Assembly (NCBI GenBank): GCA_964512835.1
Contig: CAZELA010000003.1
Span: forward strand, 88,098-152,097
Source of the DNA: an uncultured Candidatus Saccharibacteria bacterium
GTDB taxonomy: Bacteria > Patescibacteriota > Minisyncoccia > Phycocordibacterales > UBA2100
Direction: 5' to 3'
Length of the DNA: 64,000 bases
Under the pieces are notes generated by a model, which saw nothing but the letters and a program-made list of their open reading frames with translations, had not been told where the DNA came from and did not search any database. Shown in pieces: positions 2,263-63,958 of the stretch. Both the position numbers and the translations under genes were made by a program. Numbering within the stretch: the first letter of the stretch is position 1; each line of letters opens with the position of its first letter.

Positions 2263-4013
2263 AGTGCGATCTGTACGACCACTGAGTCAGTGATATGTGC
2301 CCCGTTCGGTGCGATGCACGAAATGGTGAATGTAGTCGACTGAGTGAGCGGCACCGTTGATGCGCCACCCTTGAGGGTTGTCTGGGTAAAGCTCCCGTCC
2401 GGTGATGTTTCGATGCAGTCTGTAACACCCTGCGTGTTCCAGAAAATCGAGGTTCGGGCCCCAAGCGGTACGGTCGTGGGAGACGCCCAAATATCTACTT
2501 TTGCATTCAGTGGCTGTGCCGTTGTTGTTGTGGCCTTCGCCGGTGTCGTTTTGGTTCCGCCGACGGTCGTCTTGGTAACGACCGGCTGCGTGGCGGGTGT
2601 CGTTGTCTTTGTGGTCACGACAGGTGCCGTGCTCGGACCGACCGCGTAGCCGCGCCACGTGCACAAAGAGTCAAAGAACGACGGCGGAATAATGTATGAG
2701 AGGAAATTCTTTGACCACGGACGATTCGTGCACATCTTCGCAACCGCACTTGTGCCGCTGGTGGAATTGGTCCCGAAGAAACCGGCGACTTCGGTCTTTC
2801 CTTCGCGCACACCCGCGATAATAGTTGTGCCGTTGGAGAGAATCTTTACGTCGCCGTACGCTCCCGGTGGGAGGTTTTTCGCAACGATCGACTGCACGAT
2901 CGACTGCGGTGAGTTGAAGTTGAGCGATGCACCGGCGTCGTTCGTGCCGCCGGTCGAGGCTGAAATACCGGTCGAACCGTTACCAAGCGAAGCGCTTCCG
3001 CCGGTAGAGACTGAGCCCCCGCTTACACTGCCTGAGTTATTCAAGTTGGTCAGCGGTGTCGTAAACAGCGGCGCGCTCGTATTCGAATTGGTACCGCCGG
3101 TACCCGTGGTAACGCCGGTCACGTTCGTGCTTGAGCCGCCGTTCGTGCCACCCGTTCCCCCGTTGCCGCAGGCGCTCGCACTTCCGCCGGTGCCGGTTGT
3201 TCCGCCGACACAATCCTGCCCGTTGTTCGGTGTCGGGTTCGTACCGGCTGCGATCGTCAGGTTCACGCCGCCACGAATGTCGCCGGTTGAAGCGATCTTC
3301 AGACGTGCCGCAAACGTTCCGGCCGCTGAGTATGTATGGTCTACCGTCTCTTGAATGCTACGGCATCCGTCTTCCGCGTGAACGGGCACGTTGTATTTCG
3401 CGCCGTCTGCGTAGTCGAGCTCAAGCTCCGGCGTATTGCAGCCTGTCGTACCGTTGGTGTACGCAAACGTAACTTTAAGCGGTGTTTCCCCTTCGGTCGG
3501 ATTTGCAACGAGACCGCCCGACGGATCGGTCTGATTCTCCTTGCTCGTGGGATCGCTCGCGGGATTATAGAAGTAACACATGGGGTTACCCTCGGCCATC
3601 GCACGATCGCCCGTCGGCTGCATGGTGGTACACATGCCGGTATTCGGGTCCGTCGGCGAACCGCCGCCACCCCCGCCGTCTTTACCCTTAAGGGCCTCCA
3701 TTAACTTACCGAGCATTTCGCCGAGCTTCGACATACCCTGGTCGAGTTTGCCGTCACTTGTGCCTGTTGCCTCACATTTGTTTGTAGCAACACACTTCCC
3801 CATAGTGACGAACCCGTTCGTCGTATCAAAACACGGGCATAAGTATTTGTTTGCTCCTGGCTCGCATCCTTTCTTACCCATTTTTTGACCGCATGGGCAT
3901 GGTGGATCAGCGGGAATACACATCGCGTCTGCGGCAGTACCCATCGCACTCGAGACAAACGGCAAACACAGGAGAACCGTTGCAAGTACAAATGCAACAC
4001 GTGTACGCGTCAT
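2259..4013 (-). CDS. Secreted Cys-rich protein with a long Gly/Thr/Ser/Asn low-complexity region (adhesin or surface-layer-like)
   Basis: N-terminal signal peptide MTRTRVAFVLATVLLCLPFVSSA, then a cysteine-rich module (CIPADPPCPCGQKMGKKGCEPGANKYLCPCF...) and about 150 aa of G/T/S/N repeats. Converges on the PAP2 gene with a 4-nt overlap. Confidence 0.6.
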   Translation of the reverse strand: MTRTRVAFVLATVLLCLPFVSSAMGTAADAMCIPADPPCPCGQKMGKKGCEPGANKYLCPCFDTTNGFVTMGKCVATNKCEATGTSDGKLDQGMSKLGEMLGKLMEALKGKDGGGGGGSPTDPNTGMCTTMQPTGDRAMAEGNPMCYFYNPASDPTSKENQTDPSGGLVANPTEGETPLKVTFAYTNGTTGCNTPELELDYADGAKYNVPVHAEDGCRSIQETVDHTYSAAGTFAARLKIASTGDIRGGVNLTIAAGTNPTPNNGQDCVGGTTGTGGSASACGNGGTGGTNGGSSTNVTGVTTGTGGTNSNTSAPLFTTPLTNLNNSGSVSGGSVSTGGSASLGNGSTGISASTGGTNDAGASLNFNSPQSIVQSIVAKNLPPGAYGDVKILSNGTTIIAGVREGKTEVAGFFGTNSTSGTSAVAKMCTNRPWSKNFLSYIIPPSFFDSLCTWRGYAVGPSTAPVVTTKTTTPATQPVVTKTTVGGTKTTPAKATTTTAQPLNAKVDIWASPTTVPLGARTSIFWNTQGVTDCIETSPDGSFTQTTLKGGASTVPLTQSTTFTISCIAPNGAHITDSVVVQIAL

Positions 4014-10340: not shown

Positions 10341-10657
10341 TTGACCCTTCTTTTTGTGTCGCTCTATGCTCTTGCGATAAATTTACACCACAAAACCCGA
10401 TTGCACGGGGGCAATCGGGTGTTATGGTTCGGGAAGTCCCCGATTATCTACATGGGTGGAGATGCACAATTTCGGGCGATGCTTTTGTAGGAAAAGTTGC
10501 AGTTGAGATCTAAGGATAGTAAGAGCCGAAACTTTTACGTCCTCGAAGAAACCGCCATCGCCCGAAGCTATGCGTCTCTATCCCCTATGTAGAGAAAAAG
10601 CGCTCTGTTGGGCGCTTTCTGAGGGGGAATATATCATATTAAAACCACTTGTCAAGT

Positions 10658-11674
10658 ATGGTGAATACCGACGATTCCGCGACCCAGAAGGGCTCCCGGA
10701 CCCTCGATCAAGCCCTGCGACCGGATTCCTGGACAGAATATGTGGGCCAAGGCCCCATCAAAGAGAACCTTCGCATCCTCCTTACGGCCGCAAAAGGCCG
10801 CAACCATCAACCTGAGCACGTGCTTTTGTATGGTCCACCCGGTTTGGGCAAGACAACACTCGCGCATCTCATTGCAAAAGAAGTCGGCGCAAATTTACGC
10901 ACGACGTCCGGTCCCGCGATTGAGCGCGTGGGCGACCTCGCATCGATCCTCACCAACCTCTCTCCCGGTGATGTGCTATTTATAGACGAAATTCACCGTC
11001 TGAACCGCACCATTGAAGAGGTACTCTACCCTGCGATGGAAGCGGGTGTGCTCGATATTGTGATCGGCAAGGGACCTGCCGCGCGTACCGTACAGCTGGA
11101 GCTCCCGCCGTTCACATTGATTGCCGCAACGACGCGCATATCAATGCTCTCGGCACCGCTGCGCTCCCGATTCTCGGGCGGCACGTTCCGTTTGCAGTAC
11201 TACACAGACGAAGAGATCGCGGAGATTCTGCGACGATCCGGGAAGATTCTTGGCATAGAGACGGATATGGATGCGCTGATGGAAATTGCCAAGCGCTCGC
11301 GCTCGACACCCCGAACGGCCAATTACCTGTTGAAACGCGCGCGCGATTACGCCGCAGTCTCTGAACAGGCACTCGACATGAGAGCCGTAAAACGTTCACT
11401 CGCGATGCTGGAGATCGATGAAGCGGGACTCAACCAAACGGACCGTGACATTCTGACACTGCTTATAGAAAAGTACGCCGGAAATCCGGTTGGTTTGAAA
11501 ACGATCGCCGCTGCTCTTTCCGAGGAAGAGGCGACCATTGAAGAAGTGAACGAGCCGTATCTGATGCAGACCGGTCTGATTGACCGCACACCCCGAGGAC
11601 GGGTTGCGACAAAGAAAGCCTACCTGCACATGGGTTTTAAACCGCCTGCGGATGAACCGTCGCTCGGTCTGTAG
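10658..11674 (+). CDS. ruvB: Holliday junction branch-migration ATPase RuvB
   Basis: Walker [15 protein letters not shown], Walker [11 protein letters not shown], sensor and arginine finger, RuvB C-terminal winged helix. The first ATG in the ORF was chosen; TTG at 10649 is an alternative start. Confidence 0.9.
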
Positions 11675-11735: not shown

Positions 11736-12665
11736 ATGACTGAAGCAGCTGAACGGACGAGCGTGTGGCGCGCGGTGCGAGACGAGGAGAAGTCTGAGGC
11801 GATCAAACGGATCGAACAGTCGCTCGACCTCATCGACGACAATCTCGTGATCAACTCGGTCTTCGCTGTACTCAGGCGGTATGGCATTCGCCTGAAGTCG
11901 TTCAGGGCGCCGAAGTGCTCCGTTACGAAGGAATCGTACACGCCGCGGGGCAGCAAGTTCCTGATCTGCGGCAGCGCGTCGCGCGACGAATTCAAGATCC
12001 ACGAGCCCGGCGTGCGTCAGCGCGAAGAGCGCGGAGCAAACTATTTGCTCACGCTCCTGCACGTGTACTTTCACGAGTACTCGCACATGCTCGAGGGCGA
12101 GTACCAAACGAAACAGAAGGATCTGTCTGTCGGCGGGATGCGGTTCACGGGCTCGAAACGAGTGAGCGGGTACATGACGCGTGTCGTGTTCAACCTGCCC
12201 AAGGAATTCGAGTTCCGCGAAGGCACGCTCGTGACGAACTCGATGCTCAACGAGGCCGTGACGGAATCGTTTGCGCGTGAGTGCGTTGCCGAGTACCTGC
12301 GGCTCGATCCGAATTTCGGCGGCGTGGGAGAGGTGGCGGTCTCGATCCACCGCGAACTCATGGAGAACGACTCCGACCTCGTGTTCTATCCCGATCCCGT
12401 GCGCTTCCTCACTATGCTTTCGCAAGAGCTCAAGCAGGCGCTCGGTACCGAGCGAGACGTCAAGCGGCTGCTGTACGGCGACTACTTCAAAGGAACCGAT
12501 GTGCTGCGAAGCCGTAAGTGGAAACGGATTCTCAAGCAGTGCGACCTGTACGGAATCATGCAGGCGTGCGCGGGTGAGTTGCCCGCTCATGCCTACAAAC
12601 TGATCGCACTGCTCCACTCGGAGATGCGAAACATCGAGACGGTTCACCTGAAGATTGTTCGTTAG
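11736..12665 (+). CDS. hypothetical protein with HExxH motif (possible zinc metallopeptidase-like)
   Basis: LLHVYFHEYSHMLEGE contains an HExxH motif followed by Glu. SD-like GGGGGT upstream. Hairpin plus T-run terminator at 12671-12705. The opposite-strand ORF 11637-12683 has shadow composition. Confidence 0.55.
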   Translation: MTEAAERTSVWRAVRDEEKSEAIKRIEQSLDLIDDNLVINSVFAVLRRYGIRLKSFRAPKCSVTKESYTPRGSKFLICGSASRDEFKIHEPGVRQREERGANYLLTLLHVYFHEYSHMLEGEYQTKQKDLSVGGMRFTGSKRVSGYMTRVVFNLPKEFEFREGTLVTNSMLNEAVTESFARECVAEYLRLDPNFGGVGEVAVSIHRELMENDSDLVFYPDPVRFLTMLSQELKQALGTERDVKRLLYGDYFKGTDVLRSRKWKRILKQCDLYGIMQACAGELPAHAYKLIALLHSEMRNIETVHLKIVR

Positions 12666-12670
12666 AACCA

Positions 12671-12705
12671 TGCCGCCGGCCACTCGCCGGCGGCATTCGT
12701 TTTTG
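12671..12705 (+). terminator. Rho-independent terminator after the HExxH gene
   Basis: TGCCGCCGGC-CACTC-GCCGGCGGCA followed by TTCGTTTTT. Confidence 0.7.
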
Positions 12706-12765
12706 AAAAGTTGCGCAGCACGCAGATGTGATTAGGATGCAGATAGACAACCAAGGGAGTGTGTC

Positions 12766-13494
12766 ATGGGACTCGCTGAATTAGCGCTCGTTAATGCCCC
12801 GCACGGTAAAAGCAAACTGATCGTGGACTGCACCTACCGCCGTACACGGTTCAATCCGACCAGGGATAAAGGTAGACCGATCGCAGCAAAGTTCGCCTAC
12901 TCGATGGCGGCACATCTGCTGAAACTTGATGCCGGCCACAGCGAGCAAGAGATCGCATCGCAGCTCGAGTGTTCGGAATCGCAAGCGAAAACATTCGTTG
13001 AATACGGTGCACACGTCGTGAACCGCTCCGGCGAAGCCCAGGAACTGCTCGCCACGATACGCGACGACGTGCATTCGAGACTCGAGAAGGTCGGTATGCA
13101 GTTCATGCTGGACTCGGTCGATATGGAACCGCCTCCGCCGGCGATCCTCGAAATTCCTGACGAGGTGCCGAAGATCATCGCGCTCGTTGCGCGAATACTC
13201 GGCGTTCCCCCGGGACTCATGGTGGGAAACACGAAGCGTTTCCCTGAGATGCACGCACGCCATATCGCCGTCGCAATCGTGCAGTTCAAGAAACCCGCGA
13301 TGTCGCGCCCAAAGATCGGTTCGTACTTCGGCAAGCGCGACAACACGACGATACTGTCATCGCTCCAAAAGATCGATCGGATCGTCCGAGGCGAGGACGA
13401 CGACCCCGTGCTGTTCAAAAAGATCGAACACGTACGCGAAAAACTGGGTCTGGATATTAGCGCGTTCTATTTTGTTCCGAAGAAACCTGCGTGA
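12766..13494 (+). CDS. Orphan DnaA domain-IV-like DNA-binding protein (DnaA C-terminal HTH domain fused to a novel about 130-aa N-terminal region)
   Basis: C-terminal NTKRFPEMHARHIAVAIVQFKKPAMSRPKIGSYFGKRDNTTILSSLQKIDRIVRGEDDDP matches the DnaA domain IV pattern (R..A.aRqiAMYL...S...IG..[12 protein letters not shown]..kI). Compare the genuine DnaA in this window: [39 protein letters not shown]. No AAA+ domain. SD AAGGGAG before ATG. Confidence 0.6.
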   Translation: MGLAELALVNAPHGKSKLIVDCTYRRTRFNPTRDKGRPIAAKFAYSMAAHLLKLDAGHSEQEIASQLECSESQAKTFVEYGAHVVNRSGEAQELLATIRDDVHSRLEKVGMQFMLDSVDMEPPPPAILEIPDEVPKIIALVARILGVPPGLMVGNTKRFPEMHARHIAVAIVQFKKPAMSRPKIGSYFGKRDNTTILSSLQKIDRIVRGEDDDPVLFKKIEHVREKLGLDISAFYFVPKKPA

Positions 13495-14513
13495 ACTTTC
13501 GGCGGCCTTGCGGCCGCCGTTCGTTTATCTGTGTATGCACTTTAAAAACACAAAGGCTTCCACGAGGGAAGCCTTTTGCGTGCACGGCGATTTCAGACCG
13601 ACGACCGCTGCTGCTTGGATTGATATGATCTCCCCTCGCCGCAACCGTTGCCCTAGAGCTCTCGCAGCCTGCTCCCGCTCCATCTTCCGGCTGTTACCCC
13701 GGCGTAGGTCCTGGGAACTGATCCCCGGGACGCTTGGCGTTGCCGCCACCCCCTTGAGACCGACTGACACACGGTAAAGCGCATCAGTACTTCGGAGTAT
13801 ACGGCGTCGTTTTTGTGTGCAAATCGGTTCAAAACCGGATTTATTGCGGATTCCATATGTATAAGTCTGTGGAAAAACATGTGAATAGTCGATCCGTGGC
13901 TCGAGCGTGGAATATTTCGGGCTGTTGATAACTGCAGATATACACACCCTGCCCCGGATGAAGAGACGTATGATACGAGGGACACACGGTAACGAAAAAG
14001 GCTCCGATCGCTCGGGGCCTTTTTTCGTTCTCGGTTATTGAGGATCTGTTCTGCGGGTGTGAAAGGCTTGATACGATCGCACCTTACTCGAGCTGGAGCA
14101 CCGCGCTTGCGCACGATAACCCCGACCGCAAAACCACTGACCTAACCGACAGTTCCTTCAGTTCGTACCGCTTTCGCAATACTGGGATCCAAGGAACGTT
14201 GAGGGGCGCATCGTTCTTGCGAACGTTCGACTCCTCGGTGCTGACACACGGTAAGGAATGTCAGAAGCCCCATAGTATCCCCCGTGCAAGCGGGTCATAT
14301 ATTGAGAAATCCCCCGAAACGGGGGATTTCTCGTGCGTAACTATGGGGATAGCACAGTGGATAACCCGGTGGATAGCCATACCGGTAACCAAAAGGGCCC
14401 TTGCGGGCCCAATTATTACCAATTCTTTCCTAATACACCCTCTCTAATATAGTTGACTTTTTTCATGCTTTTTAAGGGTTATTACTAAGTCTGACGTCAG
14501 TTTATCACTAGTC
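13495..14513. other. About 1-kb ORF-free structured region with repeated 13-mer and DnaA-box-like sequences
   Basis: No credible ORF on either strand. TGACACACGGTAA at about 13764-13776 and 14241-14253, GGACACACGGTAA at about 13980-13992. Near-DnaA boxes TGTGGAAAA (about 13868), TGTTGATAA (about 13922), AGTGGATAA (about 14355), GGTGGATAG (about 14367). Perfect hairpin GAAATCCCCC-GAAA-GGGGGATTTC at about 14308-14333. AT-rich tail 14410-14513. Confidence 0.5.
14388..14412 (-). terminator. Rho-independent terminator (minus strand) after gene 14514-15110
   Basis: Minus strand reads GGGCCC-GCAA-GGGCCC followed by TTTTGG. Confidence 0.6.
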
Positions 14514-15110
14514 TTACTTGAAAAGAAAGACCAGTGCGAGAACGAACAATAAGACTACTGCGATGCCCAAGAATATTGTCTGAAGTACCCATGTCCACAT
14601 CGGCGAGCGAATGATTCCCTCCTCCCCTTGCGCTAGACCCTGGTGGAAGGATCGGCCATCTTCATAGGACTTCTCCTTTCGCAAGACGCCATTCCAGCTC
14701 TTAAATAATGACAGGAAGCCGCCCATGCTATCGTCCCAAAACTTCTCCTTTCGCTTTATGTGCAAGAGCCCCATTACAAGAGAGAGCACGAGGAAGAAGA
14801 GGCTGGTGGCGTAGGATATTTTCACCCACAGAACAGCGGCATAGGAAAGTCGTGCAAACGTGTTTGGGTCTGTGAACGATTGCAGGAAGAGTCCTGCGAA
14901 AGCAAACAGAATGGTCGCAATCTGGACTTCCAGCCCCGTGAACTGGTCTGCGAGCTCGGCACCACGTCTTGCGGAATTTGCCAGGCCAGCGAAGGACGTT
15001 TCGCGAGAGAGACGCGCAAGTTCGCGCTTTTGCTCGACATCCAAACCCGCCGCCTTCGCTGAATCGTGTATTTCTTGCTGAACAAACTTTCTTAGAGTCT
15101 CTTCATCCAT
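14514..15110 (-). CDS. hypothetical membrane protein
   Basis: Three or four predicted TM helices in the C-terminal half. Hairpin plus T-run terminator downstream on the minus strand (about 14388-14412). Confidence 0.5.
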   Translation of the reverse strand: MDEETLRKFVQQEIHDSAKAAGLDVEQKRELARLSRETSFAGLANSARRGAELADQFTGLEVQIATILFAFAGLFLQSFTDPNTFARLSYAAVLWVKISYATSLFFLVLSLVMGLLHIKRKEKFWDDSMGGFLSLFKSWNGVLRKEKSYEDGRSFHQGLAQGEEGIIRSPMWTWVLQTIFLGIAVVLLFVLALVFLFK

Positions 15111-15201
15111 AGAACGCGCATGCTACAGCTACAAAATAGGCTATGCAAGTGGTGCAAAACCCCGCCCATCCCTGTGGACGGGGTTAAACAAGGGGGTGCC
15201 T

Positions 15202-15666
15202 TTACGCGTGGGCCGGGACGCTCTGGTCGTGGTCGTCTTTGCAGGTCATTCCCCCGCAGCCGCGGCACTCACACGCCCATACCGACCAGCGGCCGGAACC
15301 GGCAAATGCGATACCGAGCGAGAGGAGGAAGAGCACCACTTCGAGCTCGTGCTGACCGTAGCCGTTTGCAAAGTGGCCTGTGACCCAGATCGCCACCACC
15401 ATCTCGATTGCAAAGAGAATAGCAAACAGTCGCGGGATGATACCGAGAATAATCGCCGCGCCGCCGATGAGCTCCAGGTATGTGATGAACTCGGCAGTTC
15501 CCGTCGGGAAGCCCATACCGGAGAACATGCCGCCGATCATGTCGGCGTTGTTGAACTTCATCCAGCCGTGCATTACGAACACGAGACCGGTCGCAACGCG
15601 TATTAAAAGTAGTCCGAGCGACGGCTTGTACATCATCCGTCCGCATGTATCCATTAGTGATTTCAT
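15202..15666 (-). CDS. DoxX family membrane protein with Cys-rich C-terminal tail
   Basis: DoxX-like pattern LLLIRVATGLVFVMHGWMKF with 4 TM segments. C-terminal tail CECRGCGGMTCKDDHDQ is unusual. Confidence 0.7.
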   Translation of the reverse strand: MKSLMDTCGRMMYKPSLGLLLIRVATGLVFVMHGWMKFNNADMIGGMFSGMGFPTGTAEFITYLELIGGAAIILGIIPRLFAILFAIEMVVAIWVTGHFANGYGQHELEVVLFLLSLGIAFAGSGRWSVWACECRGCGGMTCKDDHDQSVPAHA

Positions 15667-22249: not shown

Positions 22250-23347
22250 TTATCGGTTGAGCGGCATCACGAGGTACATGAACGACGCGTCGGATGCCCC
22301 GCGGATAACGAGCGGGCGACCGGGCCCGGCGAATGAAAGCACGACACTGTCACTTTCAACGCTTGGTAAACATTCGGAGAGGTACCCGATATGAAAATTG
22401 ATATCAAGATCTTCACCGGTTAGCGCTGCATCAATTGAGTCAGACATCTCGCCTACATCATTCGAACGCGCGGTCGCACTGAAAATCTTTTTCTTCGGGT
22501 ACACATGCAGACCCACGTGTTGATCATTACCCGAAAATACACGCGCCTTGCGAAGCATTTCAGACAGGTCGGCCTTCAGAAGCGTTGCCTCGGTTGCCGT
22601 AGTCTTCGGCACGATCTCTTTGTAGTTCGGAAATGTCGCATCTACGACACGGGAGACGAATCGTACACCACCTCCTGAGAGCACGAGCTGTGCATCTTCC
22701 GTCGCGATCGTGACCGTATCGTCGTCGATCTTGTCGAGAATGTGAGTAAGTTCGAGTGCGTGTTTAAGGGGGATGAGCAATTCGCTTTCTTCATTCGCAC
22801 CGACACCGGTTATCGTCTTCTCGGCAAGTCGAAACGAGTCAGTTGCTACGGACACCATCGAACCGTCTTTGATGACGATATAGATGCTTCCGAGGTCAGG
22901 ACGGATCATTGACGGTGATGCCGCATAGCTAACAGCCTGTAATCCGCGTGTAATTCGCTCCCTATTCATCGTAATACCCTTTTTAGATGTCGTGGTAGGG
23001 AGTACCGGGAATTCGGCTTGTGGCACGGCTTTTATGAGGGTTTTCGATCCGCGTGATTCGATCAAAAGATTTCCGTCTTCAGCAGACAGTGTGACTGTGT
23101 CGCCGTTGATGGATCGGATGGTCTGAGAAAGGATCGTTGCAGGTACCGCAATCGTTCCCTTTTCCTGAATATCAGCGGGTACTGTGATTTCAACACCGGC
23201 TTCAAGATTTGTTGCTCGTATTACCAGTTCTTTGTCAGCATCGATAAGAATGCACGAAAGGATCGGGAGTGATTCCTTTTTCCCCACCACCCGCTCCGCG
23301 ATCAGAATCGCATTCAGGATTTTTTCTTTCGTCGTTCCTATCTTCAT
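22250..23347 (-). CDS. dnaN: DNA polymerase III beta sliding clamp
   Basis: Three-domain beta-clamp pattern. Gene order dnaA-dnaN. Confidence 0.9.
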   Translation of the reverse strand: MKIGTTKEKILNAILIAERVVGKKESLPILSCILIDADKELVIRATNLEAGVEITVPADIQEKGTIAVPATILSQTIRSINGDTVTLSAEDGNLLIESRGSKTLIKAVPQAEFPVLPTTTSKKGITMNRERITRGLQAVSYAASPSMIRPDLGSIYIVIKDGSMVSVATDSFRLAEKTITGVGANEESELLIPLKHALELTHILDKIDDDTVTIATEDAQLVLSGGGVRFVSRVVDATFPNYKEIVPKTTATEATLLKADLSEMLRKARVFSGNDQHVGLHVYPKKKIFSATARSNDVGEMSDSIDAALTGEDLDINFHIGYLSECLPSVESDSVVLSFAGPGRPLVIRGASDASFMYLVMPLNR

Positions 23348-23584
23348 ACTTATTTAATTAAAGACTATTACTACTACTAGTGACTGGGATAACGGGATAA
23401 CTCAGAAAGAGCTAGGAAATACGCGATAATTTCTGTCTCCGACACCCGTGGATAACTGCTGCGCGAGGACTGTGTCGTCTGTGGACGAACGTGCGTTGGA
23501 GAAGTACACCGTGCTATTCATTGAGACTTCATAGTGTTGTACCCTGCGTTCTTCCCCTGTTTGTGCAGGTGATATCCACATAGG
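23348..23584. promoter_or_regulatory. dnaA-dnaN intergenic region with DnaA boxes and AT-rich tract (oriC candidate)
   Basis: AT-rich ACTTATTTAATTAAAGACTATTACTACTACTAG directly after the dnaN start. CGTGGATAA (about 23447-23455) and ATATCCACA (about 23572-23580) are each 1 mismatch from the TTATCCACA box. Weaker TGGGATAAC x2 and TGTGGACGA. Confidence 0.6.
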
Positions 23585-24934
23585 CTAGGCGTGAATCAGC
23601 GCGCGAATGTGGTCGAGCTCCTGTTCGAGCGAGCTCGAATTTTTCATCTCCTCCTTAATTTTTTCGCACGAGTGAATAACGGTCGTATGGTCGCGGCCGC
23701 CGAGCTTCTCGCCGATTGACGGGTATGAGACCGCGAACTCTTCGCGCAGCACGTACATGATGATCTGGCGCGGCTTCACGACCTCCTTTTTGCGGGTCTT
23801 TTCGTAGATGCTCTTCTCCGGTACTTCGTAGTACTGCGCGATACGTCGCACGACTTCGTCGATAGAGACTCCGCGGTTCGGCTTTACGTTGTGTTTAATG
23901 AGTGCGCGTACGTCGGCGTGCGAGATAGCCTTCCCCTTCAGTTGAGACTTACAGACGATCATATTGAGCACACCCTCAAGCTCACGGATGTTACCCCGCA
24001 CGTTCTCGGCAATGTACTGAATGATGTCCGCAGGAATCGAGAAGCCATGCTGTTCGATCTTTGCGCCGATGATGGCGGTACGACTCTCAACGTCCGGTTC
24101 AGGAATCTCTGCGATCATACCGCCCGAGAATCGTCCTTTCAGGCGGTCTTCGAAGCCGGGTAACAGCGCCGGATGTTTGTCCGACGAGAATACGATCTGC
24201 TTGTTGTTATCGCGCAATGCGTTGAAGAGGTGGAACAACTCCTCCTGGGTTTTCTCTGTATTTGCGATGAACTGCACGTCGTCCATGATGAGTACGTCGT
24301 ACTGACGGTACTGATCCTTGAAGTTATTAGCGTGCCCGGCACGTACCGCATTGATGTAGTCGATAGCAAAGCGCTCCGACGTCACGTAGAGGACCTTCTT
24401 GTTCGCGTGCGACTTCTTAAAGTAGTTCCCTATCGCCTGGATAAGGTGGGTCTTTCCGTGGCCGGTTGATCCGTAGATAAAGAGCGGGTTATATGCGAGT
24501 CCCGGACGCTCAAGCACCGCCTTTGCGGCAGCGTGGGCGAGCTGATTGAACGGTCCCACGACGAATGTTTCAAATGTGTAGCGCGGGTTCAGGTTATCGC
24601 GCTTGTCTATATAGAGCGACTGGAGGTCGAACGAGGCGTTCTGAGGCGCCTCCTGCTTCTGCGGCTTGCGATCCTGCTGCGGTGCAGTGCGGTGCACGAC
24701 GTATTCGACTGTCCGGATAGACGAATCGAGCGAGCGGAGCGCCTTCATGATGAGCTTGTGGTGCTTGTCGGAGAGCCATTCCTTCACAATCTTCGACGGA
24801 ACAGCGACCTGCACGGTACCCCCATCACGGTGAGCCACGTCAGTATTGCGAAACCATGTTCGGAACGAGGCTTCAGAAGTACCCAACTCTATCTGTACGA
24901 GTGCGTTCTGCCATAGTTCACGGTTTGTCATCAT
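23585..24934 (-). CDS. dnaA: Chromosomal replication initiator DnaA
   Basis: Domain I, AAA+ domain with Walker A GSTGHGKTHL and box VII, and domain IV IGEKLGGRDHTTVIHSCEKI. Confidence 0.95.
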   Translation of the reverse strand: MMTNRELWQNALVQIELGTSEASFRTWFRNTDVAHRDGGTVQVAVPSKIVKEWLSDKHHKLIMKALRSLDSSIRTVEYVVHRTAPQQDRKPQKQEAPQNASFDLQSLYIDKRDNLNPRYTFETFVVGPFNQLAHAAAKAVLERPGLAYNPLFIYGSTGHGKTHLIQAIGNYFKKSHANKKVLYVTSERFAIDYINAVRAGHANNFKDQYRQYDVLIMDDVQFIANTEKTQEELFHLFNALRDNNKQIVFSSDKHPALLPGFEDRLKGRFSGGMIAEIPEPDVESRTAIIGAKIEQHGFSIPADIIQYIAENVRGNIRELEGVLNMIVCKSQLKGKAISHADVRALIKHNVKPNRGVSIDEVVRRIAQYYEVPEKSIYEKTRKKEVVKPRQIIMYVLREEFAVSYPSIGEKLGGRDHTTVIHSCEKIKEEMKNSSSLEQELDHIRALIHA

Positions 24935-25129
24935 AATTGTGTGATACGTCGTCTATGCAGTGAGAACAATGCTCAGCATTATACGCACTTCGTGCTCGTA
25001 TGGAATCTTGACCGAGTGTCGCAGGGGTGTTCACAACTATGTGGATAACGCGGGGATATGTTTTTTTGCGCTCGCGGAATTTTTTTCCGCACGTTGCGTT
25101 TTTCACCCGCCTGTCGCATACTGCGCCGC
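24935..25129. promoter_or_regulatory. dnaA-rpmH divergent promoter region with a perfect DnaA box and T-tracts
   Basis: Perfect TGTGGATAA at about 25039-25047, then three phased T-tracts (ATGTTTTTTTGCG, GGAATTTTTTTCC, GCGTTTTTCACC). Confidence 0.6.
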
Positions 25130-63506: not shown

Positions 63507-63958
63507 ATCGCTTTCAGGAACGCGTCGAACGAGTTGGTCATAACGGCGCTCTTGAATACGTCATCGTCGCGAACGACGGTGTAACCCGCGCGGACGAGCG
63601 CCGCTGCGGCGGCGTCGGTTTTTTCCTGAAACGGATACGCAAATACGGTAATCGAGCGCCCGATTTCTGATTCGATACGGTGCTTATCCGTCAGAATTTC
63701 ATCATTGAGACCGGCTAGGTTGAGCTGTTCTACGTGTACGTGGTTTGCCGTGTGTCCGCCGATCTCCATACCGCTGTCGGCTATCTCGCGGACACGTACC
63801 CAGTCCATATGGGATGTGTCGCCGACCAAGTTGCTCGGGATAAAAAATGTGGCGTGGATACCGCGTGCGCGGAGTTCCTGTATCGCAAGTGCTTGGCCCG
63901 GCAGTGCATCGTCGAACGAAATGATGATCGGACGCTTCGGAAGTTTATGCTCCGACAA
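63503..63958 (-). CDS. Polysaccharide deacetylase (NodB-homology domain) protein
   Basis: IISFDDAL ... motif 1 (DD), HTANH zinc-binding motif and FAYPF motif of CE4 deacetylases. Near the window edge. My manual read of the displayed sequence here differs from the tool frame by 1 nt. Confidence 0.65.
   Translation of the reverse strand: MSEHKLPKRPIIISFDDALPGQALAIQELRARGIHATFFIPSNLVGDTSHMDWVRVREIADSGMEIGGHTANHVHVEQLNLAGLNDEILTDKHRIESEIGRSITVFAYPFQEKTDAAAAALVRAGYTVVRDDDVFKSAVMTNSFDAFLKAI

Follow-up and report, generated by a model that had tools for sequence, protein, structure and literature searches.

A probable cluster of structured non-coding RNA genes linked to DnaA-box arrays near the replication origin of a Saccharibacteria genome

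What is the function of a kilobase of DNA that carries no credible open reading frame (ORF) in the genome of a Saccharibacteria bacterium? The question is raised by positions 13495-14513 of the window, i.e. the whole stretch of 64,000 nucleotides that was analyzed. A reading made from the sequence alone had offered three answers: a datA-like site, a secondary or plasmid-like replication origin, or unannotated structured RNA. Comparison with related genomes makes it probable that the area 13545-14376 is a conserved non-coding RNA gene cluster of a Saccharibacteria/CPR lineage, situated downstream of doxX. Taken as a whole, the locus is in our judgement best explained by two paralogous RNAs (RNA-A and RNA-B), an antisense RNA (RNA-C) and promoters linked to DnaA boxes, an interpretation that we consider likely though by no means certain.

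The comparison set consisted of seven syntenic relatives, Saccharibacteria/CPR MAGs. The locus follows doxX in the sequences L010, L023, L024/25, L026, L027, L029, L030 and L031, with the repeated 12-mer described below on the doxX strand. Divergence from L010 amounts to 0.045-0.081 in the blocks 13612-13800 and 13921-14375, compared to 0.295 at 1274 fourfold sites and 0.24-0.26 in two spacers; the spacer 13495-13611 diverges at 0.256, a near-neutral rate. Searches for homologous loci elsewhere yielded no match in a protein-pattern scan of metagenome contigs, chance matches only (L014-L022) in a 20-mer DNA scan, and 0 matches in a scan of viral contigs for the 24-nt hairpin.

The lack of a credible ORF was borne out by this comparison. 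Only mechanical minus-strand ORFs of 140 and 153 amino acids are present and no coding signal was detected: substitutions relative to L010 show no codon periodicity, a 50-residue plus-strand ORF starting at ATG 13625 has accumulated exclusively nonsynonymous changes (8/8), and no ORF is conserved in frame or length among eight RNA-A and five RNA-B sequences. The two minus-strand ORFs were rejected as proteins for want of codon periodicity and conservation, and the neighbouring ORFs have no Pfam matches. Small proteins or RiPP-like peptides ending in ...DTR* were likewise discarded, given that only copy 1 of the 12-mer closes an ORF, the one with 8/8 nonsynonymous changes. Gene callers do place spurious ORFs in the locus, for example at 6826-7143 of L024.

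Known RNA families do not account for the region either. A scan with the 4227 models of Rfam 15, among them those for RNase P, SRP, 6S, tmRNA, riboswitches, ROOL, GOLLD, OLE and raiA, returned 0 matches in the whole window at gathering thresholds, only terminator-like sub-threshold matches of at most 21 bits between 13400 and 14600 at E<=10, and, at E<=1 in five relatives, none that overlapped one of the three RNAs (RNA-A, RNA-B, RNA-C). The sequence-only reading had failed to recognize a tRNA or tmRNA, and ARAGORN found neither. A tRNA-like T-arm at 13824-13838 lacks model support and its hairpin is not conserved in L010; a CsrA-type GGA decoy and a resemblance to RNase P, SRP or 6S RNA also received no model support.

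The suggestion that one or more structured RNAs are encoded here fared better, as covariation supports two, with the main RNAs on the minus strand. Their elements and the flanking hairpins are the following:

13993-14267, minus strand: RNA-A gene, a predicted structured RNA of ~270 nt (covariation, promoter, terminator)
14272-14299, minus strand: promoter P_A, with -35 TATGAC (14294-14299), a 16-nt spacer and -10 TACTAT (14272-14277) (promoter conservation)
14241-14264, minus strand: RNA-A 5' hairpin with UUACCGUGUGUC; 12-mer copy 3 at 14243-14254
13995-14024, minus strand: RNA-A terminator hairpin with a U-run on the minus strand; bidirectional, common to RNA-C
13545-13790, minus strand: RNA-B gene, a predicted structured RNA of ~245 nt and paralog of RNA-A (covariance-model match)
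13796-13823, minus strand: promoter P_B, with -35 TTTGCA (13818-13823), a 16-nt spacer and -10 TATACT (13796-13801) (promoter scan)
13763-13788, minus strand: RNA-B 5' hairpin with UUACCGUGUGUC; 12-mer copy 1 at 13766-13777
13552-13576, minus strand: RNA-B terminator hairpin followed by a U-run (terminator scan)
13500-13519, plus strand: terminator-like hairpin, terminator of the DnaA-C gene, flanking the element and outside it
14304-14332, no strand assigned: perfect 13-bp palindromic hairpin with an AAA loop, terminator of the upstream gene (DoxX in relatives)
14395-14410, minus strand: terminator-like hairpin (hairpin scan)

In an alignment of eight RNA-A sequences (A7), compensatory changes occur in 29 of the 78 predicted pairs and 94.6% of the cells pair, compared to 32-43% in slid controls. 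None of 500 shuffles reached the observed values, in a control that ignores phylogeny. The strand is indicated by 56 G.U cells against 10 A.C cells and by the three hairpin loops, all of which are GNRA on the minus strand only. The predicted RNA-A fold comprises these three GNRA-capped hairpins, two long-range helices and a second motif, GCGAUCGUAUCAAGCC. A covariance model built from RNA-A matches RNA-B end to end (13549-13790, minus strand; 60.1 bits, E 9e-16), finds a full-length RNA-B in every genome and detects no further copy within the window. RNA-B has a GCAA-capped helix and its version of motif 2 is GAGAUCAUAUCAAUCC (plus strand 13619-13634); a supposed extended -10 element, TGATATGAT at 13621-13629, is in fact this motif 2 of the minus-strand RNAs. 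The divergence of RNA-B from L010 is 0.053, versus 0.295 at fourfold sites, and its alignment (A8, five sequences) shows compensatory changes in 18 of 79 pairs. In a joint alignment of both RNAs, pairing extends to 91.8% of the cells (slid controls 35-41%) and compensatory changes affect 47 of 78 pairs (slid controls 14-22). Altogether 29-47 pairs carry double changes and 92-95% of cells pair, beyond the controls; the alignments hold 5-12 related sequences of one clade, and the variety of pair types, together with the slid controls, partly offsets the effect of phylogeny.

Promoters and terminators delimit each of the two predicted RNAs. P_A is colinear in nine genomes as T(T/A)TG(A/C)(C/A), 16 nt and TAnTAT, at a constant distance from the 5' hairpin. 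The RNA-B hairpin begins 7 nt downstream of the -10 of P_B, whose layout (TTTGCA, TTTGCG or TGTGCA, 15-16 nt, TATACT or TATAGT) recurs in L010, L024 and L027, while L030 retains the -10 with no clear -35. The terminator stems of both RNAs covary. A promoter conserved in most relatives and a GC-rich hairpin followed by a U-run are thus found, as expected for sRNA genes with intrinsic terminators. Terminators had been proposed at both sides of the region, and hairpins are indeed present at 13500-13519 (plus), 13552-13576 (minus) and 14395-14410 (minus). The perfect hairpin noted before exists as well, with 13 bp instead of 10 and a loop of AAA instead of GAAA; it is conserved in all relatives, the loop being flipped from AAA to TTT in L010. 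In silico, RNA-A and RNA-B are shown to be two paralogous minus-strand genes for predicted structured RNAs, each with a sigma-70-type promoter and an intrinsic terminator. The modelled fold of each has a hairpin at the 5' end, helices capped by GNRA loops and a 3' domain of several helices.

It is conceivable that such units are not independent RNA genes but cis-regulatory leaders (riboswitch or T-box-like) or an element of the doxX 3'-UTR. An intrinsic terminator closes each unit, as in attenuator-type leaders, and doxX invariably precedes the locus on the same strand. However, between doxX and RNA-A lie a terminator and a conserved promoter, and in the window a whole gene is even inserted between the two. 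Moreover, no gene on the same strand lies downstream of RNA-A or RNA-B, where RNA-C and convergent genes are located instead, and no riboswitch family matches, which leaves this explanation very improbable.

The RNA genes also give a meaning to the repeat noticed in the region. The 12-mer GACACACGGTAA is present in three exact plus-strand copies (13766, 13981 and 14243; spacings 215 and 262), whereas the 13-mer described as triplicated, with a leading T, occurs only twice, copy 2 reading GGGACACACGGTAA. With up to one mismatch, GACACACGGTAA has four matches in 64 kb versus 0.22 expected, a number reached by 0 of 100 shuffles. The ACTGA/TCAGT and CTGACA/TGTCAG stems are present around copies 1 and 3. 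Read on the minus strand, the 12-mer is UUACCGUGUGUC, which is invariant in the 5' hairpins of RNA-A and RNA-B (12 copies). Rather than an iteron, the repeat appears to be an RNA motif, which lies in the 5' hairpins of the two paralogs and, as the complementary sequence, in the 5' tail of a small convergent RNA. An alternative model of three plus-strand sRNAs, each ending in the 12-mer and a terminator, was ruled out by the G.U/A.C counts, the GNRA loops and the promoter conservation.

Copy 2 is probably the single-stranded 5' tail of this convergent RNA of ~45 nt, the candidate RNA-C:

13981-14026, plus strand: candidate RNA-C, ~45 nt (predicted from comparative sequence, nine copies)
13969-13974, plus strand: candidate -10 of RNA-C, TATGAT (comparative)

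The candidate has an unpaired 12-nt 5' tail, GACACACGGUAA, and continues with the hairpin 13995-14024, closed by a U6 run. It would be transcribed towards RNA-A, with this hairpin as the terminator of both. All nine copies fold as tail plus hairpin and the hairpin stems covary, although selection acting only on RNA-A could account for part of the signal where the two overlap at the shared terminator. A sign of the plus strand is a U.G pair in 7 of 9 copies, which would be a C.A mismatch on the opposite strand. In the nine copies (seven genomes), the -10 box reads TATGAT, TAGAAT or TACAAT with positions 1, 2, 5 and 6 invariant, always 6 nt upstream of GACRCACGGUAA; no -35 element is recognizable. 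Standalone copies downstream of RNA-B in L027 and L030 lie where no other transcript needs the terminator. The tail matches the hairpins of both RNA-A and RNA-B with perfect complementarity (predicted duplex -21.1 kcal/mol) and varies only between A and G, so that pairing with U is retained, while the motif in RNA-A and RNA-B is invariant.

Convergent long and short RNAs, complementarity derived from direct DNA repeats and a shared bidirectional terminator, all present in silico, are also features of type I toxin-antitoxin systems of the par/fst type, with RNA-A and RNA-B as the supposed toxin mRNAs and RNA-C as the supposed antitoxin. Against this, the ORFs within RNA-A and RNA-B change in frame and length from one genome to the next, none of them being hydrophobic, substitutions track base-pairing and not codons, and the three GNRA-capped helices together with the long-range helices point to a functional RNA fold. 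A toxin-antitoxin function is therefore judged improbable.

How, then, are the DnaA-box-like sites to be understood? They are real and enriched, three having one mismatch (13868, 13923 and 14356) and more having two. Compared to dinucleotide shuffles of the region, eight sites with up to two mismatches face 1.93 expected (reached in 1/2000) and three with up to one mismatch face 0.15 (2/2000). Seven of the eight are on one strand (0/2000) and two triplets show an exact 12+12-bp phasing (0/2000). The locus is the densest 900 bp for such sites in the 64-kb window, with 9 versus a mean of 1.9. The sites are arranged as follows, the boxes being judged by similarity to the universal consensus and several having 2-3 mismatches:

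14332-14376, minus strand: DnaA-box array 1, CTATCCACC, TTATCCACT, CTATCCCCA and degenerate TTACGCACG, with an exact 12-bp period, upstream of P_A
13856-13888, minus strand: DnaA-box array 2, CTATTCACA, TTTTCCACA and TTATACATA, with an exact 12-bp period, upstream of P_B
13923-13947, minus strand: DnaA-like box TTATCAACA (13923-13931) and conserved GATATRCACAC (plus strand 13937-13947), upstream of the RNA-C promoter

The low-affinity sites of Escherichia coli oriC have an 11-bp spacing, and the period observed here is slightly longer. Phased TTATCCACA-like arrays precede the RNA-A and RNA-B promoters in all relatives. Array 1 recurs, conserved and colinear, in each of the nine sequences from relatives (in L031 as two boxes, of which one is a perfect TTATCCACA), array 2 keeps its place and phase in L010, L031, L024 (perfect TTATCCACA), L027 and L030, and the segment 13921-13995 differs from L010 by one substitution in 75 nt. 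Because the boxes are enriched, phased and conserved across relatives, a DnaA-binding role is plausible for part of the locus.

A cluster of several conserved DnaA boxes outside oriC might act at the DNA level as a datA-like or DBC-like locus that titrates or inactivates DnaA, with the RNAs incidental or with transcription modulating DnaA occupancy. The densest box cluster in the window, two phased arrays conserved in all relatives and the proximity to oriC agree with this idea, as does a DnaA paralog consisting of domain IV only (DnaA-C), encoded next to the locus in four genomes. On the other hand, the boxes cover only ~90 of the ~830 conserved bases, RNA base-pair covariation accounts for most of the constraint, and the arrays are placed upstream of P_A and P_B and in phase with them. 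As the main function, titration is thus unlikely, though a real possibility, and it is compatible with the non-coding RNA reading. DnaA-C itself had been suggested as the protein that binds here. The locus is kept in L024, L026 and L027, in which the DnaA-C gene is missing, and therefore it cannot be defined as a DnaA-C target. Hardly any relatives exist for the DnaA-C and 309-aa proteins, and all of these belong to very short contigs.

A secondary or vestigial plasmid-like origin, with 13-mer iterons, an AT-rich unwinding element (DUE) and DnaA-C as initiator, would agree with the DnaA-like boxes, an AT-rich stretch and the adjoining DnaA-C gene. The stretch does exist at 14410-14513, with 68% AT (not ~55%) in a window of 56% GC (not 60%). 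It belongs, however, to a strain-specific insertion of ~830 bp (14376-15202) that is missing from L010, the closest relative, and from all others, and no conserved AT-rich unwinding element was found beside the DnaA boxes. Nor was the arrangement of an iteron-type origin found (tandem iterons of 17-22 bp with helical spacing and a cognate Rep gene), the 12-mers lying 215 and 262 bp apart inside covarying RNA hairpins. The three genomes without DnaA-C keep the locus here too. Finally, dnaA (23585-24934), dnaN (22250-23347) and the cumulative GC-skew minimum (within 22-24 kb) are all found at 22-25 kb of the window, 9-10 kb from the locus, which is therefore not the origin. Already contradicted on these grounds, the plasmid-like origin is scarcely credible.

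The non-coding RNA reading can be extended to a mechanism. Through its tail, RNA-C would pair with RNA-A and RNA-B at the loop and the 3' arm of their hairpins. Such a tail-to-loop antisense interaction, of the kind known from Sok/hok, RNA-IN/RNA-OUT or par RNA II/RNA I, would control the stability or activity of the two RNAs. DnaA would bind the phased TTATCCACA-like arrays upstream of P_A and P_B and the box upstream of P_C, as proposed from consensus and conservation only. Such binding would make expression of the RNAs depend on DnaA or on replication status and, secondarily, sequester some DnaA. A bolder version, which we regard as speculative and rather doubtful, is a hitherto undescribed DnaA-controlled RNA module of ultra-small CPR bacteria, in which two tertiary-structured paralogous RNAs, possibly RNP scaffolds or catalytic and not sRNAs that act by base-pairing, are gated by a dedicated 45-nt antisense RNA and wired to DnaA by phased boxes.

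Knowledge of how Saccharibacteria and other CPR bacteria use RNA for regulation is very limited; among the results listed in literature searches, there was nothing on non-coding or small RNAs of Saccharibacteria and nothing specific on sRNAs linked to DnaA boxes. The predicted RNAs of ~250 nt would constitute a new structured family that is strongly supported by covariation and unmatched in Rfam, and together with RNA-C a compact candidate system of RNA-RNA pairing based on an invariant motif of 12 nt. The physical linkage of ordered DnaA-box arrays to RNA promoters near oriC is unusual. If DnaA controls the RNAs, the locus would offer a simple model of how minimal genomes tie riboregulation to replication status, and a true DnaA-controlled module could in turn influence replication or the cell cycle where classical regulators are missing. 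For annotation, the RNA locus accounts for a 'gene desert' in many Saccharibacteria MAGs.

Several known systems share some of these features. The raiA motif, ROOL and OLE RNAs, large or medium-sized structured bacterial RNAs whose function is not known, resemble RNA-A and RNA-B in size range, in multi-helix covarying folds with GNRA loops and in their restriction to narrow lineages, but RNA-A and RNA-B match no Rfam model in sequence or structure. Tandem sibling sRNAs, such as OmrA/OmrB, PrrF1/2 and LhrC1-5, are adjacent paralogs with diverged bodies, an invariant short motif and their own promoters and terminators. RNA-A and RNA-B are likewise adjacent paralogs with an invariant motif, promoters and terminators of their own; unlike typical base-pairing sRNAs, they are much larger (245-270 nt) and have a common multi-helix fold with covariation.

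In Bacillus subtilis, DnaA binds stably to eight intergenic regions (PMC2533591). The present locus resembles these clusters and E. coli datA in its intergenic, consensus-like boxes on an origin-proximal part of the chromosome, and differs in that its predicted boxes form two short arrays of direct repeats, strictly periodic at 12 bp and situated immediately upstream of the RNA promoters.

Closest to the candidate RNA-C are Sok of hok/Sok and the RNA-IN/RNA-OUT pair of IS10, where a short RNA with a single-stranded 5' tail of ~11-12 nt and one hairpin is complementary to a hairpin loop and arm at the partner's 5' end. Predicted RNA-C has the same form and is complementary to the 5' hairpin of RNA-A and RNA-B; in contrast to those systems, it is encoded in trans to the pairing site and not opposite to it, its partners are apparently non-coding and the pairing is a prediction. 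In the par (fst) locus of the Enterococcus plasmid pAD1, RNA I and RNA II, one long and one short, are transcribed convergently across direct repeats, so that they are complementary close to their 5' ends, and a single bidirectional terminator serves both. The layout predicted here is the same in these respects, but RNA-A and RNA-B are two paralogous long RNAs without a toxin ORF, highly structured with GNRA helices, and the locus is chromosomal, close to the origin and equipped with DnaA-box arrays.

The region 13495-14513 is best read as an RNA locus, in which two paralogous structured RNAs are combined with a dedicated small antisense partner. To its left lies a plus-strand gene for a 242-aa protein (DnaA-C), whose sole Pfam match is the DnaA C-terminal HTH (3e-10), and to its right a minus-strand 198-aa gene. 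The repeat taken for a triplicated 13-mer in the sequence-only reading has a 12-mer core, GACACACGGTAA, that occurs exactly at 13766, 13981 and 14243 (copies 1 to 3), the 13-mer with its leading T being found only twice. At up to one mismatch, the window contains four sites versus 0.22 expected, the fourth at 63745 (one mismatch). Hairpins, terminator-like sites and DnaA-box-like 9-mers were recovered with small corrections. The covariance-model scan suggested at that stage placed no known family over the region: Rfam gave zero matches in the whole window at gathering thresholds and only terminator-like fragments within the region at E<=10, and ARAGORN detected neither tRNA nor tmRNA. The locus comprises:

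13993-14267, minus strand, RNA-A, predicted structured RNA
13545-13790, minus strand, RNA-B, predicted structured RNA
about 13981-14026, plus strand, RNA-C, candidate RNA convergent with RNA-A
14299-14272, minus strand, P_A, promoter upstream of RNA-A (TATGAC, 16 nt, TACTAT)
13823-13796, minus strand, P_B, promoter upstream of RNA-B (TTTGCA, 16 nt, TATACT)
14376-14332, array 1 of DnaA-box-like 9-mers upstream of P_A (CTATCCACC / TTATCCACT / CTATCCCCA / TTACGCACG)
13888-13856, array 2 upstream of P_B (CTATTCACA / TTTTCCACA / TTATACATA)

RNA-A and RNA-B are very probably structured minus-strand RNAs with compensatory changes beyond slid and shuffled controls, which bears out an alternative already offered from the sequence. 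The consensus fold of RNA-A (alignment A7, window 13993-14267(-) and orthologs, 8 sequences) comprises 78 pairs, and compensatory double changes are seen in 29 of these. Standard pairs occupy 94.6% of the cells versus 32-43% with partners slid by 1-3 columns (double changes in 4-10 pairs), and each pairing measure was reached by 0/500 column shuffles. The minus strand shows 56 G.U versus 10 A.C cells; read on the opposite strand, 86.6% of the cells pair. Three hairpin loops (GCAA; GAAA/GUAA; GCAA/GAAA/GCGA/GUAA) are GNRA on the minus strand only, where alone the U:G to C:G and C:G to U:G exchanges of the 5' hairpin are tolerated. Besides this hairpin, with UUACC in its loop and GUGUGUCAG as 3' arm, the fold contains a pair of GNRA-capped hairpins, a terminator and two long-range helices in nested arrangement; these helices enclose the third GNRA hairpin and one bearing the conserved GAGAUCRUAUCAA. 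RNA-B (alignment A8, window 13541-13791(-) and four orthologs) folds into 79 pairs, 18 of them compensatory, and has the RNA-A architecture less one hairpin. R1, a covariance model derived from RNA-A, aligns with the whole of RNA-B in every genome (window 13549-13790(-), 60.1 bits, E 9e-16) and detects no other copy in the 64-kb window. When both RNAs were aligned to R1, a fit that leans to structure, 91.8% of the cells paired and 47/78 pairs were compensatory; slid controls, meant to address this bias, gave 35-41% and 14-22 pairs. No ORF conserved in frame or length was found in RNA-A and RNA-B, and a type I toxin-antitoxin locus fails as an explanation on its tested defining feature. Rfam 15 models had zero matches to the RNAs in the window and in five relatives, a viral-contig scan for the RNA hairpin yielded nothing, and such RNAs in Saccharibacteria were not found described in the literature searched.

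In the relatives the promoters keep their colinear placement, the one exception being a 15-nt spacer (P_B of L027). P_A keeps T(T/A)TG(A/C)(C/A) and TAnTAT in nine genomes, and P_B has a TTTGCA-like -35 and a TATACT or TATAGT -10, with no clear -35 in L030. The 5' hairpin starts ~7 nt after the -10. Reading the RNAs as cis-regulatory leaders likewise failed in the defining feature tested.

Copy 2 of the 12-mer has neither a minus-strand promoter nor a hairpin partner. It adjoins the RNA-A terminator and falls where the region is best conserved (1 substitution/75 nt). Nine copies from seven genomes, taken in the plus-strand sense, have a common layout of TATGAT/TAGAAT/TACAAT, 6 nt, GAC(A/G)CACGGUAACG, hairpin and U-run; the -10-like box is invariant at positions 1, 2, 5 and 6 with variable flanks, and no -35 element is evident. 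Two genomes (L027, L030) have an additional copy that stands alone, downstream of the terminator of RNA-B itself, with a different but compensated stem. In 7/9 copies the plus-strand hairpin holds a U.G pair whose minus-strand equivalent would be a C.A mismatch, which gives the plus-strand form an advantage of ~3 kcal/mol in stability. Every copy is predicted to fold into a free 12-nt 5' tail and a hairpin, and this tail is perfectly complementary to the motif of RNA-A and RNA-B. The motif is invariant in 12 copies, and the tail varies by A/G only (4/9 copies) with U pairing preserved. Taken together, layout, fold, strand-specific U.G pair and complementarity point to RNA-C as a likely RNA of ~45 nt. 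At -21.1 kcal/mol, the predicted tail-motif duplex compares with -7.9 and -12.3 for the hairpins it would target. Regulation of RNA-A and RNA-B by RNA-C through pairing is a possibility at slightly less than even odds.

Constraint on the region was assessed against L010, the closest genome match, a MAG labelled uncultured Candidatus Saccharibacteria (DnaA-C proteins 97% identical). Fourfold-degenerate sites of nine flanking genes diverge by 0.295 (1274 sites), and the spacers 13495-13611 (0.256) and 13801-13920 (0.242) are near this rate. The other segments diverge as follows:

13612-13800, 0.053
13921-14030, 0.045
14031-14068, 0.053
14069-14340, 0.081
14341-14375, 0.057

Substitutions across the region lack codon periodicity, in line with the earlier claim that it holds no credible ORF. 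The only tidy ORF (50 aa, ATG 13625) was rejected as a gene, 8/8 changes being nonsynonymous. Long identical blocks in 13619-13709 are kept in the partial, more distant L009 (neighbouring protein 67% identical). Separately, the loop of a perfect palindromic hairpin (14317-14319) reads AAA here but TTT in L010, an inversion of the hairpin loop like those known from cruciform-prone palindromes.

Searches with DnaA-C and the 309-aa protein reached relatives on tiny contigs only, a protein-pattern scan of metagenome contigs gave zero matches and a DNA 20-mer scan only chance matches. Syntenic loci (L023-L031) were reached via graded doxX homologs on longer contigs (window doxX 15202-15666, minus strand). 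Each one fetched has an ORF-poor stretch after doxX with one to four copies of TTACCGTGTGTC on the doxX strand (window minus strand). Relatives' public gene calls over the RNA region (L024 6537-7699; L001-L008) are hypothetical ORFs of 76-116 aa, probably annotation artefacts. In the more distant P0029 neighbourhood (JGI 3300050821; doxX 56% identical), a 530-aa reverse-transcriptase-trypsin fusion gene between doxX and ruvB replaces the RNA locus.

The DnaA-box arrays occupy promoter-upstream positions. Allowing <=2 mismatches to TTATCCACA, seven sites fall on the minus and one on the plus strand of the conserved region, which is denser in them than any other 900 bp of the window (9 versus a mean of 1.9). 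The excess noted earlier withstands 2000 dinucleotide shuffles of the region itself:

sites at <=2 mismatches, observed 8, shuffle mean 1.93, reached in 1/2000
sites at <=1 mismatch, observed 3, shuffle mean 0.15, reached in 2/2000
sites on one strand, observed 7, shuffle mean 1.48, reached in 0/2000
triplets with 12+12-bp spacing, observed 2, shuffle mean 0, reached in 0/2000

Array 1 is flanked by the stop codon of the upstream gene and by that gene's terminator hairpin (14304-14332). Order and phase of both arrays are identical in all relatives, some boxes being perfect TTATCCACA, and another DnaA-like box with a conserved GATATRCACAC element precedes the RNA-C -10 box. Judged from the consensus, DnaA binding to the arrays is somewhat favoured, and a pure datA-like site is partly compatible as a reading. 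The DnaA-C paralog, which shares 24% identity with domain IV of the DnaA encoded in the same genome, might recognise similar sites. It is nevertheless dispensable for the locus, which the sequence-only reading had suggested could be its binding target: L024, L026 and L027 keep the locus without the DnaA-C and 309-aa genes, and L030 has both locus and DnaA-C gene. The two proteins are encoded as a variable cargo pair in the interval from ruvB to the RNA locus (11736-13494; L030 3429-4785) and have almost no homologs among 5.8 billion sequences; DnaA-C also occurs in L010 and L009, and the 309-aa partner is confirmed only in the window and L010.

A secondary or plasmid-type origin, proposed from the boxes and the AT-rich tail, fails on its tested defining feature. 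The elements that bear on it are:

22250-23347, minus strand, dnaN
23585-24934, minus strand, dnaA
14376-15202, ~830-bp cassette with the 198-aa gene, its terminator (14395-14410, minus strand) and the AT-rich tail

The cumulative GC-skew minimum (22-24 kb), dnaA/dnaN and DnaA boxes at 23447, 23572 and 25040 (the last a perfect TTATCCACA) place the chromosomal origin at 22250-25100, 9-10 kb from the region; yidC and jag follow beyond dnaA/dnaN within the window. L010 follows the window colinearly apart from 14376-15202, for which it has 22 bp instead. The AT-rich tail (14410-14513, GC 0.317), the terminator and the 198-aa gene therefore belong to a strain-specific cassette outside any conserved element. 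The 198-aa protein has hydrophobic segments and no match in Pfam or NCBIfam. The insertion point exactly adjoins array 1.

Upstream of ruvB (10396-10640, plus strand) lies another non-coding block that is unannotated and extremely conserved. It is 97-100% identical to L010 despite 30% fourfold-site difference, its ~190-nt core is near-invariant in L024, L026 and L027, and it is predicted to fold into a long rod (MFE -99.6 kcal/mol, z = -6.2). Rfam gave no match at E<=10; candidate identities are a housekeeping RNA (6S-like or otherwise) and a leader of ruvB. Just upstream of the block, L010 has ~500 bp (3093-3589) without window counterpart (~10355). Stretches 100% identical to L010 at 12840-13080 (in the DnaA-C gene) and 10500-10740, with overall divergence of ~8-10%, suggest recent recombination tracts or unusually strong constraint.

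The components of the RNA locus, sibling structured sRNAs with an antisense partner and DnaA-box clusters, are of known kinds; their combination is unusual. Its architecture resembles that of tail-to-loop antisense pairs and of par RNA I/RNA II, from which it differs in that the toxin ORF is missing here.
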